Source: a virus (taxonomy: Duplodnaviria > Heunggongvirae > Uroviricota > Caudoviricetes). Taken from it: 3,773 bases of DNA. The position numbers were made by a program, and so were the translations under genes. A model generated the notes under the pieces. The model saw nothing but the letters and a program-made list of their open reading frames with translations, was not told where the DNA came from and made no database searches. The stretch lies in the IMG/VR virus record IMGVR_UViG_2690316115_000029, one strand, 5' to 3'. Below, in pieces: positions 1 through 3,773 of the stretch; position 1 is the first letter of the stretch, and each line of letters begins with the position of its first letter.

Positions 1-1230
1 ATGAGCAGAGCACTTAACAAACTGAGCGATACACAGCTGAGGAAAATCAACGGCACACCCGCCCAAAAAACAGCCTTTCTTAATGACGGTGGAAACCTGA
101 GCGTCAGGCATTCAACCAGTGGCCTTTTAACCTGGTATTTCACTTACAGGGCCGGAACGGGAAGGGGGGCACCACCGGAACGCATTAAGCTGGGAAATTA
201 TCCTGATCTGAGCCTGAAATCAGCCAGGGAAAAAGCCGCCCAGTGTCGCGCATGGCTGGCAGAGGGGAAAAATCCACGTCATGAGCTTAATTACACCGTA
301 CAGGAAGCGTTAAAGCCGGTAACGGTTGGCGATGCGCTCACCTACTGGCTTGAGTCGTACGCAAAGGAAAACCGCGTGGATTATGCCGCCCTGAAAAAGC
401 GCCTTAATAATCACGTAATACAGCACATTGGTGCTATGCCGCTGGATAAATGCGAGCTACGGCACTGGCTGGCCTGTTTTGACCAGGTGGCAAAGCGAAC
501 GCCTGTTACTGCCGGATTCTTGCTACAGACGTGCAAACAGGCGCTTAAGTTCTGCCGGAGGCGGCGCTATGCAATCAGCAACGTTCTTGATGATATGAGT
601 GTGGCGGACGTTGGGAAAAAACCGGATATAAGCGAGCGTGTCTTAAGCACCAAAGAACTTGGCGAATTATTGCAGGCACTGGACAAAAAAATATTTTCCC
701 CTTACTACGTCGCACTAATCCGCCTCCTGATTGTTTTCGGATGCCGGACGGTAGAACTGAGGTTATCGGAGATCAGCGAGTGGGATTTTACCGAAATGCT
801 CTGGACCGTGCCGAAAGAACACAGCAAAACGAAGGTGGCAATATTCCGGCCCATACCGGAAGCAATACTGCCGTTCGTCACGCAGCTGGTGGAGCAGAAC
901 AGGCACACGGGCTTATTGCTGGGGGAAGTGAAACAGGAAACAAGCGTGTCGCAGTACGGCAGATTAGCGCACAGGAGGCTAAAACACCCTCACTGGTCAC
1001 TGCATGACATCCGGCGCACCTTTACAACGATGCTGAACGATTTAGGCGTGGATCCTCACGTCGTGGAGCAGCTTACAGGTCATCAGATGCCAGGGATGCA
1101 ACGAGTCTATAACCATTCCCGTTATCTGGATGCGAAACGTGACGCGCTGGATATGTGGACGGAGCGGTTAGGGATACTGGCGGGAACACATGAAAATGTA
1201 ACCACATTGCCAATAGCCAGAGAAATATAA
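1..1230 (+). CDS. int: Tyrosine-type site-specific recombinase (integrase, P4-like domain architecture)
   Basis: 409-codon ORF from the track, stop TAA at 1228-1230. N-terminal arm-type region (LSDTQLRK...WYFTYRAG...KLGNYPDLSLKSAREKA...WLAEGKNP) resembles integrase N-terminal DNA-binding domains. C-terminal catalytic motifs are visible: GCRTVELR (box I Arg), HDIRRTF (His-x-x-Arg), LTGHQ, and VYNHSRY (nucleophile Tyr region). The ATG is at window position 1, so the true start and any upstream att site or promoter cannot be judged. Confidence 0.93.
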   Translation: MSRALNKLSDTQLRKINGTPAQKTAFLNDGGNLSVRHSTSGLLTWYFTYRAGTGRGAPPERIKLGNYPDLSLKSAREKAAQCRAWLAEGKNPRHELNYTVQEALKPVTVGDALTYWLESYAKENRVDYAALKKRLNNHVIQHIGAMPLDKCELRHWLACFDQVAKRTPVTAGFLLQTCKQALKFCRRRRYAISNVLDDMSVADVGKKPDISERVLSTKELGELLQALDKKIFSPYYVALIRLLIVFGCRTVELRLSEISEWDFTEMLWTVPKEHSKTKVAIFRPIPEAILPFVTQLVEQNRHTGLLLGEVKQETSVSQYGRLAHRRLKHPHWSLHDIRRTFTTMLNDLGVDPHVVEQLTGHQMPGMQRVYNHSRYLDAKRDALDMWTERLGILAGTHENVTTLPIAREI

Positions 1231-1257
1231 TTTTTTTTGCGATTTTTCAGGATGCGG

Positions 1258-1317
1258 ACAACGTGAAACAACGAGACACAACGACGAACAACAAGGAACA
1301 AAATGGAACAACGGGTT
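1258..1317. repeat. Six tandem 10-bp direct repeats, consensus ACAACGnGnA, in exact 10-bp register
   Basis: Read directly: ACAACGTGAA, ACAACGAGAC, ACAACGACGA, ACAACAAGGA, ACAAAATGGA, ACAACGGGTT starting at 1258, 1268, 1278, 1288, 1298 and 1308. The array begins 28 bp after the int stop. Function is unknown. Confidence 0.8.
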
Positions 1318-1332
1318 AAAAATCAGCCATCG

Positions 1333-1470
1333 TAATAACCATTTGATTTTTATAGGTGTACTGTTTTTTTATACACTGGCGAATCACTCTTAAAAATATG
1401 TAAAAAAGGCGTAAAAGTAAAATTTTATGCCTTTGCATCATAATGAATTAAAAGAGTTTTTATTCTCATT
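1333..1470 (+). promoter_or_regulatory. AT-rich putative promoter region for the alpA-like gene (not mapped)
   Basis: Strongly AT-rich stretch between the repeat array and the alpA leader. It contains TTGATT at 1343-1348, several TATA-like hexamers, and an IHF-consensus-like match (AATCAA-N4-TTA on the minus strand, 1336-1348). No -35/-10 pair with canonical spacing could be fixed by eye. Confidence 0.3.
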
Positions 1471-1513
1471 CCCCCTGCTTCTGTAAAACGACCGCCGCCA
1501 GTGTTTGCCATTC

Positions 1514-1566
1514 CACAAACACCCTGACACAATCCGACACAACCCAACCCAATAATCCACCCAATG
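1514..1566 (+). repeat. CA-rich, G-poor leader with GACACAA direct repeats 10 bp apart, upstream of the alpA RBS
   Basis: GACACAA occurs at 1526-1532 and 1536-1542. CCCAAT occurs at 1548-1553 and 1560-1565. Only 3 G in 1511-1570. Lies directly upstream of the AAGGGGG Shine-Dalgarno of the alpA-like gene. Confidence 0.6.
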
Positions 1567-1595
1567 ACTCTTTAAGAAACAACAAAGGGGGAATT

Positions 1596-1784
1596 GTGTT
1601 AAGCACAGATCGCTTTATACGTGAAAAAGAATGTCAGCAACTTACAGGCCTGAGCCGCTCATGTCGGTACCGCCTGGAAAAAGCCGGACAATTCCCATCA
1701 CGGCGTAAGCTGGGCGGTCGTTCCGTTGGCTGGTCTTTATCCGAAGTTCTGGCATGGAAGGACAGCTGCGAGGCAGTTCACTAA
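1596..1784 (+). CDS. alpA: AlpA-family prophage regulator / excisionase-like helix-turn-helix protein
   Basis: 62-codon ORF with GTG start at 1596, preceded by a strong SD (GGGGG at 1587-1591, 4-nt spacer). Stop TAA at 1782-1784. Sequence carries the AlpA/Vis-type pattern: HTH QQLTGLSRSCRYRLEKAGQFP followed by RRKLGGRSVGWSLSEVLAW. Position immediately downstream of an integrase fits this family. Confidence 0.85.
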   Translation: MLSTDRFIREKECQQLTGLSRSCRYRLEKAGQFPSRRKLGGRSVGWSLSEVLAWKDSCEAVH

Positions 1785-1790
1785 TCAGGC

Positions 1791-1809
1791 TGGCGGCACA
1801 CAGCCGCCA
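1791..1809 (+). other. Perfect 7-bp stem / 5-nt loop hairpin 7 nt after the alpA stop, no U-tract
   Basis: TGGCGGC (1791-1797), loop ACACA, GCCGCCA (1803-1809). Followed by CCCATCCACTAAT, so it is not a canonical intrinsic terminator on either strand. Confidence 0.5.
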
Positions 1810-1836
1810 CCCATCCACTAATACAGAGATCTAACC

Positions 1837-3255
1837 ATGAATACTGGATATTCTCCCGAACAAGGGCGGGGCTTCGTTCGTCCTGAAAAACAGAATCTGC
1901 AAAATTTTGCCGAAATTATTCCGGTTATTTCCGGCCTTACTGGCGGGAGTGAAACCAATATTGTTAACGCCAGAGCGTTGCAGATGTTTGATGATAAAAA
2001 GGGAGTAAATTTAACTTACACCCCTGACGGCAATCAGAATATGAGCATTATCTCTGAGTCAGGTTTCTACAAACTAATAAAAACAAAAAGCGCCCCGTTG
2101 CCGGAGCGCCTTTGTGAACAATTAACCAACTGCGCAAAAAATGAATCTGAGCAGTGGGATTATATCAACCATGTGGAGAAGCGCCACAATTGCCGAATAA
2201 CGGGCAAAACAAAGGCCACCCGCTACGGTGGCCCCTCGACACAAGCTACACGTTATCCCCAACGCATGAGCATTGCCAACAATGCCACATTTGCGGCTGG
2301 TGGGCAATGCAATCAGTCTGGTTCAGTTCGTTGCCATACCTGCAATGAGCGCTTTTCCCTGTACTCTTTAAGGAATTGCTCAAGGGCAAAAGCACATGGC
2401 GCGAATCTTTCTGATTCATGCTCTATCTTTCTGCGCCGTCTTTTCCGTGCCGGTGATAATGTTTTGGTCAATTCTTTATCGGTCATTGTGTTGTCCTGCA
2501 TAGCAATGCGCCGTAATACCTTACACCACGGCGCTGATGGTGATTACTCTGGTTCTTTGGTCTTGCGGCGCTGGAGTTCTTCACGTGCGACAGTGACGAG
2601 CTGCCCGATCTCCTCGGCGGCTTTGATTCCGAGTTTTTCCACCTGCGCCAGTGCATCGAGCGAAGAAACCAGGGGATTTTCTCCACTTCCTTCTGCCTGG
2701 CGCCGGGCGATCTCACCGCGTACAGCCGTAACTATAAAATTCGCTTTAGTTTCCCCTGGCTGTAGGGATGCCTCAATGCCACTCACTACTTCATGTGGAA
2801 ATCTGGCATTCAGTTGCTGTGACTTATTGTTAACAGAACTCCTGGACATGTTTGCACCTCCCATTAATAACGGGATGCAGTGTAATACAAAAGTGAATAC
2901 CAAAAAAGACTTGAAATGGTATTCACCTAAATGTAATGTGAATACCACAAGTGCTGATACATGCAATTCAGCAATTGAAACGACGAAGCCCCGCACTGTT
3001 GGAGCAGTAACGGGGCTTCTAACCACCAACGATAACGAGAGTATCGAGGTAGCTATGAGAAATCATACCACACACCCGCAAGGGCGGGACTCGCACAACC
3101 TGAATAAATACATCTGGCGTTTTATCGCCCTGAGCACTGCACAACCGCGCGTGATTACCATTGAGGCCACCAGCGAACAGGAAGCACGCCAGCAATCTCC
3201 GGCTGGCTGCGTGATGGTATTTGCTGCCCGTATTCGTCAGGGGGTAGGCTTATGA
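1837..3255 (+). CDS. Long open frame with Bro-N-like N-terminal domain; only the first ~110 codons look coding (probable truncated gene or remnant)
   Basis: 472-codon ORF from the track, ATG 1837 with no convincing SD. Residues ~50-100 (FDDKKGVNLTYTPDGNQNMSIISESGFYKLIKTKSAPLPERL) resemble the conserved core of Bro-N antirepressor-type domains (D-D-x-K-G ... G-x-Q-x-[ML]-x-[IV]-I-x-E-S-G-[LF]-Y-x-L-I ... S-x-P). From about codon 120 the translation is Ser/Cys/Arg/Ala-rich low complexity. It runs antisense through a minus-strand terminator (2203-2235) and two better-supported minus-strand genes. Confidence 0.3.
   Translation: MNTGYSPEQGRGFVRPEKQNLQNFAEIIPVISGLTGGSETNIVNARALQMFDDKKGVNLTYTPDGNQNMSIISESGFYKLIKTKSAPLPERLCEQLTNCAKNESEQWDYINHVEKRHNCRITGKTKATRYGGPSTQATRYPQRMSIANNATFAAGGQCNQSGSVRCHTCNERFSLYSLRNCSRAKAHGANLSDSCSIFLRRLFRAGDNVLVNSLSVIVLSCIAMRRNTLHHGADGDYSGSLVLRRWSSSRATVTSCPISSAALIPSFSTCASASSEETRGFSPLPSAWRRAISPRTAVTIKFALVSPGCRDASMPLTTSCGNLAFSCCDLLLTELLDMFAPPINNGMQCNTKVNTKKDLKWYSPKCNVNTTSADTCNSAIETTKPRTVGAVTGLLTTNDNESIEVAMRNHTTHPQGRDSHNLNKYIWRFIALSTAQPRVITIEATSEQEARQQSPAGCVMVFAARIRQGVGL
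2203..2235 (-). terminator. Rho-independent terminator for leftward transcription
   Basis: GGCCACC (2214-2220), loop CGCTAC, GGTGGCC (2227-2233). On the minus strand the stem is followed by TTTGTTTTG (plus-strand AAAACAAA at 2206-2213). No T-run follows it on the plus strand. Confidence 0.6.
2313..2501 (-). CDS. Small basic hypothetical protein (57-62 aa), second gene of the leftward cassette
   Basis: Track ORF MQDNTMTDKELTKTLSPARKRRRRKIEHESERFAPCAFALEQFLKEYREKRSLQVWQRTEPD. It starts 42 bp downstream of the Arc-like stop and ends about 80 bp before the minus-strand terminator. The internal ATG at 2486 has an AGGA 7 nt upstream and may be the real start. Against it: weak RBS at 2501 and several rare codons (AGA, CGG, ATA, TTA). 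Confidence 0.3.
   Translation of the reverse strand: MQDNTMTDKELTKTLSPARKRRRRKIEHESERFAPCAFALEQFLKEYREKRSLQVWQRTEPD
2544..2849 (-). CDS. Arc/Mnt-type ribbon-helix-helix DNA-binding protein (putative repressor), 101 aa
   Basis: Start chosen at ATG 2849 (residue 61 of the 161-codon track ORF) because GGGAGGTG lies 5 nt upstream; the track start at 3029 is TTG with no RBS. Product MSRSSVNNKSQQLNARFPHEVVSGIEASLQPGETKANFIVTAVRGEIARRQ... matches the Arc/Mnt N-terminal pattern (beta-strand N-x-R-[FW]-P-x-E-V, then two helices; compare P22 Arc NLRWPREV). Stop TAA at 2544-2546. Confidence 0.7.
   Translation of the reverse strand: MSRSSVNNKSQQLNARFPHEVVSGIEASLQPGETKANFIVTAVRGEIARRQAEGSGENPLVSSLDALAQVEKLGIKAAEEIGQLVTVAREELQRRKTKEPE
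2881..2946. promoter_or_regulatory. Operator-like repeats in the divergent control region: GTGAATACC twice direct, once inverted
   Basis: GTGAATACC at 2893-2901 and 2938-2946; its reverse complement GGTATTCAC at 2918-2926. TGTAAT at 2881-2886 and 2932-2937. The nearest copy is 44 bp upstream of the Arc-like start codon. Promoters for both divergent units must lie in 2850-3054, but no hexamers were confidently assigned. Confidence 0.55.
2985..3019. other. Long imperfect hairpin in the divergent intergenic region
   Basis: GAAGCCCCG (2985-2993) pairs with CGGGGCTTC (3011-3019). Inner ACTG (2995-2998) pairs with CAGT (3005-3008). No clean U-tract on the plus strand; only a weakly T-rich tail on the minus strand. 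Confidence 0.45.
3055..3255 (+). CDS. Small hypothetical protein (66 aa), candidate first gene of the rightward operon
   Basis: ATG 3055 with GAGG 5 nt upstream. Product MRNHTTHPQGRDSHNLNKYIWRFIALSTAQPRVITIEATSEQEARQQSPAGCVMVFAARIRQGVGL. Its TGA stop (3253-3255) overlaps the next ATG (3252) in an ATGA arrangement. It is the 3' end of the 472-codon frame, so it may be an artefact of that open frame. Confidence 0.35.
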   Translation: MRNHTTHPQGRDSHNLNKYIWRFIALSTAQPRVITIEATSEQEARQQSPAGCVMVFAARIRQGVGL

Positions 3256-3485
3256 GCCAGGAAATCACACTACAACAGGCAGCAGAACGCGCCCACCAAA
3301 TCGAAGTTATTTGCGCACTGGCAGAGGATTACCCTGGCATGATGACCGACAGCGAATCAGGGGCAATCATCGGCTTACTTAAACGCCTTAGCGGTGAGGT
3401 CTGCGTATTCCTGAGCGATGAACAGGAAAGAAGAACGCTTATTTCTAACGAAAAAAAATGCGGAGGGGTACACCATGTGCAATAA
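3252..3485 (+). CDS. Hypothetical protein (77 aa)
   Basis: Track ORF; ATG 3252 preceded by AGGGGGTAGG (3239-3248). Composition is ordinary and protein-like. The last 11 nt overlap the next gene. No family recognised. Confidence 0.55.
   Translation: MSQEITLQQAAERAHQIEVICALAEDYPGMMTDSESGAIIGLLKRLSGEVCVFLSDEQERRTLISNEKKCGGVHHVQ
3451..3458 (+). repeat. A8 homopolymer at the junction of the 3252 and 3475 ORFs
   Basis: Read directly (aacgAAAAAAAAtgcgg). In the 3252 ORF it encodes E-K-K (gaa aaa aaa). The downstream ORF is in the +1 frame relative to it. Confidence 0.9.
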
Positions 3486-3717
3486 CATCCGTCCGGACGC
3501 AGCCGCCGCCGCACTCACTACGCTGATGCACGCGCTTATTGATATTGAATGCACGGCAGAGCTTGCACAAAAGGAAGAACGGGAGGAATACACATTGTTC
3601 GCCCTGGAATGTATCCGATACATCGCAACGCGGTCGCTGAATGACGCTAAAAATATTCTTGTTGCTGATTGTGAAAATGGGGGGGGGTTATGCGTGATGA
3701 TCGTTTTAATTCCCTGA
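3475..3717 (+). CDS. Hypothetical protein (80 aa); start moved to the internal ATG with an RBS
   Basis: Track ORF 3418-3717, but ATG 3418 has no SD whereas ATG 3475 has GGAGGGG (3462-3468) 6 nt upstream. Product MCNNIRPDAAAAALTTLMHALIDIECTAELAQKEEREEYTLFALECIRYIATRSLNDAKNILVADCENGGGLCVMIVLIP. Stop TGA at 3715-3717. Confidence 0.5.
   Translation: MCNNIRPDAAAAALTTLMHALIDIECTAELAQKEEREEYTLFALECIRYIATRSLNDAKNILVADCENGGGLCVMIVLIP
3679..3687 (+). repeat. G9 homopolymer doubling as Gly codons of the 3475 ORF and as the SD of the 3690 ORF
   Basis: Read directly (aaaatGGGGGGGGGttATG). Encodes G-G-G in the 3475 ORF, and lies 2 nt upstream of ATG 3690. Confidence 0.9.
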
Positions 3718-3773
3718 AACAAGAATTTTCCGGCGTTCCTGATGATGCGGCTGATGCGCTTTCGTCAATATCT
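3690..3773 (+). CDS. Hypothetical protein, 5' end only (runs off the window)
   Basis: ATG 3690 directly after a G9 run that serves as SD. Reads MRDDRFNSLKQEFSGVPDDAADALSSIS to the window end. Overlaps the 3' end of the preceding ORF by 28 nt. Confidence 0.4.
   Translation, partial: MRDDRFNSLKQEFSGVPDDAADALSSIS

Follow-up and report, generated by a model that had tools for sequence, protein, structure and literature searches.

A candidate ribbon-helix-helix repressor module and an eta-like open frame in the regulatory arm of an EcCICFT073-type phage-inducible chromosomal island

Phage-inducible chromosomal islands (PICIs) of Gram-negative bacteria are organised in four zones, comprising int-alpA, a Bro zone, a replication zone and a late zone (PMC10111431). 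The experimentally characterised prototype, EcCICFT073 of Escherichia coli CFT073, carries putative capsid and head-decoration genes; helper-phage induction of this island via alpA and its packaging in helper particles have been published, AlpA autoactivates its own promoter (PalpA), and helper phages induce PalpA (PMC6092414). In addition, AlpA activates a reporter fused to the open reading frame (ORF) after alpA, and overexpression of AlpA alone triggers excision and replication (PMC6092414). Here we describe a 3,773-nucleotide stretch of viral DNA (IMG/VR record IMGVR_UViG_2690316115_000029), called the window below, which almost certainly is the integration-and-regulation arm (the left 3.8 kb) of an EcCICFT073-family PICI at the 3' end of phoQ. 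Neither the element nor its architecture is new: this is an ordinary EcCICFT073-type PICI, common in E. coli. What appear to be undescribed for these islands are a candidate repressor-operator switch, built around a leftward gene for a YlcI/YnfO-family protein with a ribbon-helix-helix (RHH)-like domain, and a long open frame antisense to that gene. No paper linking PICIs with an RHH regulator was found in the open literature (subscription-only papers were outside the search), and the open-literature PICI papers held no mention of the leftward cassette or the antisense frame. In a 2026 survey, YlcI/YnfO appears just as an accessory "prophage-associated protein" (PMC13612085).

The window shares with EcCICFT073 and related Gram-negative PICIs the integrase, alpA, attachment site and early genes, at 96 to 98.6% DNA identity outside the repressor module, as well as the succession of integration zone (int, alpA), Bro zone and then replication and late zones, the latter seen in relatives. 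A preliminary description had given the order as integrase, AlpA-family gene, leftward RHH gene, operator region and rightward small-gene operon, and all of these parts were found in their places.

Satellite P4 offers a second comparison. According to the part of PMC10111431 that cites Forti et al. (1999), P4 kil is an in-frame truncated form made from an internal promoter, the upstream late transcript is the sole template for translation of eta, and eta translation prevents immunity-specific termination. As in P4, the AlpA/Vis homologue of the window is followed by a long ORF that starts at its end, contains an internal early promoter and has an in-frame Icd-like/Kil C-terminus, which is the nested eta/kil layout. 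In contrast to P4, the window has a leftward RHH gene with operators embedded in antisense within the long ORF, and its int adjoins alpA; the two integrases are 23% identical.

Two further systems place a repressor at a divergent control region. The immI region of phage P22 encodes the RHH repressors Mnt and Arc at the divergent promoters Pant and Pmnt, and that of P1 has the order c4 RNA, icd and ant. The window resembles them in that a small candidate RHH repressor lies back-to-back with the promoter of an Icd-/anti-repressor-type operon, with operators overlapping the promoter, and relatives of the window add a C4-type RNA. It differs in having no significant similarity to Arc, an operator spacing of about two helical turns, an extra helical C-terminal domain in the protein, and replication genes rather than ant downstream. 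The Stl/Rpr master repressors of Gram-positive PICIs, the Staphylococcus aureus pathogenicity islands (SaPIs), likewise are encoded divergently in a phage satellite, with int on one side and the replication operon on the other, but Stl has an unrelated helix-turn-helix fold and the SaPI repressor is co-oriented with int. Moreover, SaPI induction occurs when a helper protein binds the repressor, whereas EcCICFT073-type induction is known to pass through AlpA.

The leftward YlcI/YnfO gene and its candidate operators

On the minus strand, at positions 2544 to 2849, the window encodes a 101-amino-acid YlcI/YnfO-family protein (NF041551, E = 1e-16). The gene has a strong, conserved Shine-Dalgarno sequence and an extended -10 element. 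The protein is tyrosine-free. Its N-terminal part is a predicted RHH-like DNA-binding domain; the C-terminal half is helical and has a helix-hairpin-helix-like motif, and there is a basic tail. The nearest structural neighbours were RHH antitoxins, and weak PSK_trans_fac matches were obtained for 25 of 37 family members. A Foldseek search with the full-length RHH monomer model gave no useful match, PDB sequence searches with full and N-terminal profiles returned no RHH entry and just a weak helix-hairpin-helix match (E = 0.026), and hhalign against Arc gave a probability of 7%. In the alignment of 37 homologues, the N-terminal third was variable and the C-terminal half conserved, and amino acid replacements were conservative in the RHH frame in all 36 pairwise comparisons. 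Long (∼101 amino acids) and short (59 amino acids, CFT073) alleles occur, the short one keeping the N-terminal domain and an RRQRRKAKE tail. The short form is without the helix-hairpin-helix-like middle (window positions 2544 to 2700 compared with 16544 to 16723 of L002; here L001 denotes E. coli 2017C-4173W12, L002 denotes E. coli CFT073, and other L numbers denote further compared loci).

The position of the gene was constant. In every genome examined it lay leftward between alpA and the early operon, at no fewer than five chromosomal sites and across differing integrases and late modules, and the same placement was found in Klebsiella, Enterobacter, Xenorhabdus, Photorhabdus and Phytobacter. 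The module is also present in the capsid-forming PICI L012, at the same roxA-phoQ site as the islands of L001 and CFT073. DNA of the family is carried by 807 of the 5,426 complete E. coli genomes, and a tblastn search of 50,697 phage genomes with the RHH protein gave no match. In E. coli K-12, ylcI of prophage DLP12 (L038, 580251 to 581379), after which the family is named, also lies back-to-back with another gene, the small-terminase homologue nohD, 388 bp away; the family may act generally at divergent promoters.

The divergent region between the RHH gene and the Icd-like gene, the first gene of the early operon, is 205 bp. A repeat search revealed three exact copies of the 10-bp, operator-like sequence GTGAATACCA within 55 bp of this region (2893 to 2902, forward; 2917 to 2926, reverse; 2938 to 2947, forward), which alternate in orientation and have centres 24 and 21 bp apart. 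When the 150 nt upstream of the RHH start codon were compared among loci, with the RHH gene pointing right, a scaffold common to all alleles was seen to carry class-specific repeats at about 52, 75, 97 and 120 nt. Six N-terminal allele classes were distinguished across six genera, each with its own 9- to 12-bp repeat at these fixed positions, and RHH residues 10 to 20 covary with the repeated motif. The N-terminus KSQQLNARFP occurs with GTGAATACCA in the window and L012, and the pair is nearly the same in Phytobacter (KSQQINARFP). KSQLTTVRVP occurs with GGTGTGTTTC in E. coli L004, three Xenorhabdus loci and Photorhabdus; KSQSLTARIP with GGTGTAAG or GTCTTACAC in Klebsiella and Enterobacter; KSKQISIRIP with TGAATCACA in L006; and ..KN[IV]R.P with ACACACCT in L008 and L021. 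In CFT073, the 59-amino-acid allele (KSQALKARVP) is combined with GGTGTGGCCCAC operators, in contrast to the 101-amino-acid allele and GTGAATACCA operators of the window. Where the N-terminus was kept across genera (L004 versus Xenorhabdus and Photorhabdus, Klebsiella versus Enterobacter, and the window versus Phytobacter), the motif was kept as well while its surroundings drifted, which favors a functional protein-site pair over mere linkage.

The operators are placed over a putative early promoter, the equivalent of P4 PLE, which was located by positional homology at 2911 to 2939 on the plus strand (-35 TTGAAA at 2911 to 2916, a 17-nt spacer, and -10 TAATGT at 2934 to 2939). The middle operator lies inside the spacer, and the third abuts or overlaps the -10 element. 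A scan found a consensus rightward promoter in CFT073 (TTGACG-18-TATAGT, L002 16785 to 16814, 10/12) and another in L004; in both, one operator lies in the spacer and one over -10/+1. The remaining operator positions flank the extended -10 element of the RHH gene itself. From these positions and the covariation, we infer that the early promoter is repressed by the RHH protein, which would also regulate its own gene. It is thus a candidate for both roles, and that of early-promoter repressor is probable. The preliminary description's leftward repressor at divergent operators is upheld in that the protein, to judge from its allele-matched repeats, would behave as a sequence-specific regulator. 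A search of viral contigs for the operator pair returned nine PICI relatives and one chance match inside an unrelated DNA polymerase gene, with no sign of the pair in helper phages.

Downstream of the RHH gene, the leftward unit contains a 57-amino-acid ORF (2313 to 2486, minus strand; phrog_21027, E = 1.6e-15) that is annotated as hypothetical in L001 and L002. This ORF is optional, being absent from L006 and L010, which keep the RHH gene, and neither family profile nor PHROG searches matched it to a toxin family. The constant pairing of an RHH antitoxin with a downstream toxin that marks type II toxin-antitoxin systems is not seen here, as the ORF is missing from several RHH-bearing islands. 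The unit ends in a predicted Rho-independent terminator (2076 to 2113, minus strand, read from 2113 to 2086), a 12-bp stem with 7 GC pairs followed by TTTTTGTTTTTATT; its folding energy is -20.5 kcal/mol (z = -5.3), and none of 200 shuffled sequences was equally stable.

The eta-like open frame and the early operon

A 472-codon stop-free frame, designated eta-like, extends along the plus strand from an ATG at 1837 to position 3255. On its way it passes, in antisense, both leftward genes, the operators and the leader hairpin, and its stop codon is that of the Icd-like gene, which is nested in it as its C-terminus. At its N-terminus is a Bro-N/Ant-like motif, matched by Pfam Bro-N at E = 0.009, which is below the family cutoff, and by a PHROG anti-repressor at E = 1e-5 over ∼30 residues. 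The "Bro-N remnant" noted earlier therefore exists as a weak motif from 1837, but it is not isolated and instead forms the 5' part of this frame.

The same relative frame, which shares wobble positions with the RHH gene, was stop-free across that gene in 18 of 18 loci and was open for 237 to 479 codons, while the other two frames inside the gene had 2 to 8 stops. The control region was open in 14 of 14 loci, with a probability of finding no stop of 0.009 to 0.043 per locus by dinucleotide shuffling and 2 to 9 stops in the other two frames. The stretch from alpA to the RHH gene varies in length (224 to 1016 nt) and in leftward gene content; across it, the long frame had no stops versus 2 to 32 in the others. 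BLOSUM62 scores for replacements in the overlap were +0.28 in the leftward RHH frame versus -1.13, about random, in the long frame, with the same direction in all 36 pairs. Conservative change in one frame and random-like change in the other indicate that the RHH sequence is selected and that the long frame is merely kept open. The overlap translation of the long frame is rich in Ser, Cys, Arg and Leu and matched no family.

In the roxA-, pntB- and tRNA-site islands of E. coli, as well as in L008, L020 and L026, the long frame starts at the end of alpA, within 55 nt of it or overlapping it, and in the window, L001, L002 and L019 it ends at the Icd-like stop codon. In L004, L005, L016 and L019 the frame is that of alpA and is separated from it by just the alpA stop codon; in L017 the 3' end of alpA holds its first in-frame ATG; and in L008, L020 and L026 the stop-free stretch extends back into alpA. 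Gene callers pick either the long frame or the leftward genes, and a 313-amino-acid ORF is called in L018.

The eta ORF of P4 (8812 to 8168) overlaps the end of vis and contains the isrK/seqA and C4/CI elements. The Icd-like domain (NF033153) was detected at residues 161 to 208 of P4 Eta (E = 1.4e-20), and the Icd-like protein of the window is the counterpart of P4 Kil. Rfam searches of the window gave just chance-level matches (RsaJ and mir-499), with no C4/CI or isrK/seqA match at E ≤ 1; the P4 positive control, L006 and L012 did match. In L012 (9704 to 9889) and L006 (3018 to 3684), C4 (CI) and isrK (seqA) elements lie downstream of the early promoter, with two C4 copies in L006, and in L012 an Ash-family ORF replaces the Icd-like gene. 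Since both RNA elements are present in L006 and in L012, which has the same RHH allele and operators as the window, protein and RNA layers can coexist. A protein repressor had been suggested to sit where P4 uses RNA-based immunity. The window itself is indeed without C4/isrK, but L012 carries both together with the same allele, and the RHH protein would therefore be an added layer upstream of a P4 PLE-like promoter and not a substitute.

The early transcript begins with a stem-loop followed by UCUAACCA (2985 to 3019, plus strand; -23 kcal/mol, z = -4.5). This conserved leader structure was seen in all 16 loci examined, at a distance of 152 to 171 nt from the start codon of the RHH gene, with compensatory changes at 4 of its 10 predicted pairs; a U-tract is absent, and Rfam gave no match. 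The first early gene (3055 to 3255, plus strand) encodes the 66-amino-acid Icd-like protein (NF033153, E = 1.4e-19) and has its own GAGG Shine-Dalgarno sequence. It is followed in the ORF list by overlapping, translationally coupled small ORFs on the same strand at 3252 to 3485 (77 amino acids), 3475 to 3717 (80 amino acids) and 3690 onwards, the last cut by the window end; matches among them were to phrog_1478 (E = 3e-28) and phrog_5146 (E = 2e-14). Within the last part of the third early ORF, and immediately ahead of the fourth, lies a run of nine G residues (3679 to 3687). The run is G7, G8 or G9 in relatives, and with G7 (L018) a single 148-amino-acid ORF is called over the positions of the third and fourth ORFs; the run could be a slippage-prone tract or a frameshift site.

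The island, its attachment site and the int-alpA arm

Megablast of the window against the 5,426 complete E. coli genomes gave matches in 1,810. At least 80% of the window was covered at a single place in 56 genomes, the CFT073 island among them, and no complete genome covered more than 88% in one place. L001 is 99.2% identical to window positions 1 to 3245. CFT073 is 98.6% identical over 1 to 2574 and 96.2% over 3013 to 3769 and diverges in 2575 to 3012. The window is a mosaic, L001-like over 1 to 3245 and L016-like over 3217 to 3773, and each of its modules is matched at ≥98.5% identity in some other PICI.

The islands of L001 and L002 are ∼11 kb and lie between roxA and phoQ. Rightward, both have small ORFs, DUF4222, a RepA/AAA_25 helicase or D5-type primase, a single-stranded DNA-binding protein (SSB), in some cases PerC, and capsid-like and decoration genes, the capsid homologue being of the lambda-E type; the preliminary description had advised looking in this direction for primase and capsid-redirection genes. 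At roxA-phoQ in CFT073, the island has the putative capsid and head-decoration genes that were reported for EcCICFT073. Features of PICIs are found throughout: int and alpA are co-oriented (plus strand) at the left end of the window; in L001 and L002, whose arm is 98 to 99% identical, a replication module lies downstream and the late end holds capsid-like and decoration genes only, without tail or lysis genes, in islands whose size falls in the PICI range of about 10 to 15 kb; and relatives occupy a dedicated chromosomal site, the roxA-phoQ intergenic region, with a flanking 10-bp repeat. Of the two affiliations first proposed, P4-like satellite or PICI-type island, the PICI holds, given near-identical copies in 56 E. 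coli genomes including CFT073, and P4-family membership does not: psu, delta, sid and epsilon are not annotated in the L001 and L002 islands (this refers to annotation only, with no dedicated profile search). Defence genes, mentioned earlier as possible cargo near int, were seen neither in the window nor in these two annotated relatives.

The attachment site was deduced from relatives. In strain 118UI, which has an empty site, roxA is joined to phoQ at the 10-bp sequence GGACATATTT, which overlaps the stop codon of phoQ; the same short roxA-phoQ spacing was seen in the best-matching genomes listed in the empty-site search. In L001, GGACATATTT is present on both sides of the island, the two copies being separated by ∼11.2 kb. 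Because this core both flanks the island and marks the empty site, the int ATG, equivalent to window base 1, is placed ∼171 bp inside the left junction of L001, in agreement with the proposal that the window starts just inside the element with the att site beyond it. The tRNA target envisaged there was not borne out, as no tRNA gene was found within 32 kb and insertion is bounded by the 10-bp core at the phoQ stop codon. Related PICIs with a different integrase (413 amino acids) do adjoin a tRNA gene (L006, 6730 to 6803; L017, 6251 to 6324); some members of the wider family therefore use tRNA targets, and the island of the window does not.

A 31-bp direct repeat, GTGCAACGATCGGTGTAGTTAATGGTGTAGT, occurs inside the island on both arms of L001 (13944 to 13974 and 24924 to 24954), the left copy 27 bp ahead of the base that corresponds to window position 1 and thus outside the window. 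The two blocks lie 114 and 77 bp from the 10-bp core, and each contains a tandem pair of GGTGTAGTTAAT. They look like integrase arm-type sites, by analogy with P4, whose annotation shows tandem 12-bp arm repeats flanking the core on either side. As the att core itself, the 31-bp repeat was rejected: an artificial empty site built on it occurred in none of the 5,426 genomes, and true empty sites end at GGACATATTT. The repeat is easily mistaken for attL/attR. A search for a 15- to 25-bp direct repeat, as had been recommended, picks it up instead of the junction, and annotation should not take it as the island boundary.

The integrase gene occupies positions 1 to 1230 (plus strand) and encodes a 409-amino-acid tyrosine integrase (Arm-DNA-bind_3, E = 5e-18; Phage_integrase, E = 6e-17; phrog_1, E = 3e-73) with an arm-type DNA-binding N-terminal domain; the gene is annotated as an integrase in L001 and L002. 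It is distantly P4-Int-like (23% identity over the full length, E = 3e-15). alpA (1596 to 1784, plus strand, GTG start) encodes a 62-amino-acid AlpA/Vis-family regulator and excisionase homologue (Phage_AlpA, E = 3e-18) that is 47% identical to P4 Vis (E = 2e-17), and an identical AlpA protein is annotated in both L001 and L002. A GC-rich hairpin with no U-run (1788 to 1812; -17.3 kcal/mol, z = -4.3) lies directly 3' of the alpA stop codon and before the long frame.

In the 365-bp spacer between int and alpA, a repeat search found six ACAAC-type repeats (1258 to 1322, plus strand) with a spacing of 10-10-10-10, and a related set at 1519 to 1543 lies over the candidate PalpA (1505 to 1533, plus strand), which was assigned by consensus match only (TTGCCA-17-CACAAT, with TG before the -10 element). 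An inverted copy of the 14-mer ACAACGTGAAACAA is found in the left att arm of L001, and the right arm contains GAAACAAC again. In inverted orientation, the ACAAC motif adjoins the 31-bp block on both att arms (L001, 13900 to 13935 and 24895 to 24920). On the basis of these motifs, the repeats are candidate AlpA (or Int) sites, possibly AlpA sites for autoactivation and excision. Repeats common to the int-alpA spacer and an att arm were not found in other PICI types.

A proposed switch and its alternatives

We lean towards a reading in which the RHH protein represses the early promoter and AlpA-driven, translated read-through bypasses the repression, by analogy with P4. In the quiescent island, the RHH protein would bind its allele-specific 10-bp operators in the early-promoter spacer, over -10/+1 and flanking the RHH promoter. 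As the operator positions and covariation suggest, the bound protein would silence the Icd-like/replication operon and regulate its own gene. A helper phage would switch on alpA, and AlpA would activate its own promoter, as published for the CFT073 island. The alpA transcript would then run rightward, with ribosomes translating the long frame from just after alpA to the Icd-like gene. Such read-through could escape termination as in P4 eta/kil, supply the early genes without use of the repressed promoter, and, as transcription converging on the RHH gene, hamper its expression. Together with Int, AlpA is probably also the excisionase at the att arms, which carry phased ACAAC and tandem 12-bp arm-type repeats. 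The model fits with the activation of a reporter in the ORF after alpA by AlpA and with the excision and replication triggered by AlpA alone (PMC6092414). Taken separately, the role of the long frame in a translated bypass is proposed with reserve.

Several observations weigh against this reading. The published account is of purely rightward transcription, with no repressor needed to explain induction (PMC6092414). The early promoter of the window is a poor consensus match, below the scan threshold, and the fourth operator position is degenerate in the window allele. Part of the covariation between N-terminus and operator could reflect linkage of neighboring DNA within one recombination module. 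The long frame falls short of alpA in L012 and the Xenorhabdus loci and stops ∼26 nt before the first early gene in L016 and L017, and, given a tyrosine-free RHH protein, the probability of an open antisense frame in the gene alone is 0.05 to 0.44 per allele.

This last point bears on an unlikely alternative, that the open frame is a passive by-product, being the wobble-sharing antisense frame of tyrosine-poor genes joined to an inherited open control region. The chance of finding no stop within the RHH gene, given the protein, is appreciable, and the control regions share a conserved scaffold, so that the loci are not independent. However, the control region stayed open in every one of the 14 loci at 1 to 4% per locus despite differing operators, with stops in both other frames; the variable alpA-RHH stretch is likewise free of stops in this frame alone; and the frame joins alpA to the Icd-like gene as P4 eta joins vis to kil. 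The opposite alternative, that 1837 to 3255 is a real Bro-N to Icd-like fusion gene (the "ORF3" of the PICI literature), with the leftward ORFs as artefacts and the repeats bound by, e.g., AlpA, would account for the frame being open in 18 of 18 loci, for its being called by some gene callers (e.g., the 313-amino-acid ORF of L018), for the unidirectional drawing of the islands (PMC6092414), and for the Bro-N-like motif and the Icd-like domain at its opposite ends. It is very improbable, however, in view of the replacement scores that favor the leftward frame in 36 of 36 pairs, the Ser/Cys/Arg/Leu-rich overlap translation that matched no family, and a leftward gene with a conserved Shine-Dalgarno sequence, an extended -10 element, a NF041551 match, an RHH-like predicted fold and its own terminator.

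The leftward genes could instead form an accessory cassette, either an antitoxin-toxin (addiction) pair or a regulator of helper or host, with repeats that serve autoregulation only and an early operon controlled by AlpA alone. The RHH antitoxins among the nearest structural neighbors, the weak PSK_trans_fac matches, the two-gene layout, the accessory status of YlcI/YnfO in the 2026 survey (PMC13612085), and the different, prophage context of K-12 ylcI, divergent from nohD, all point this way. Nevertheless, many islands keep the RHH gene without the 57-amino-acid ORF, the gene and the early operon are back-to-back in every case, independent of integrase, site and late module, two operator positions fall in the early-promoter spacer and over -10/+1 and not in the RHH promoter, and the paired motif in viral contigs is restricted to PICI relatives, bar the one chance match. 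An accessory cassette is thus quite unlikely.

Under the preferred reading of an RHH-repressed, AlpA-bypassed early promoter, a conserved, allele-specific repressor-operator module over that promoter is a direct candidate for how Gram-negative PICIs stay silent. The YlcI/YnfO RHH protein may be their missing master repressor, with escape by an open-frame device shared with P4 and not by an anti-repressor, although we advance this combined proposal only tentatively. Through its antisense open frame with an Icd-like gene at the end, PICI regulation is linked to the eta/kil mechanism of P4, which suggests that the control regions of PICIs and P4, satellite families treated as distinct, share an origin.

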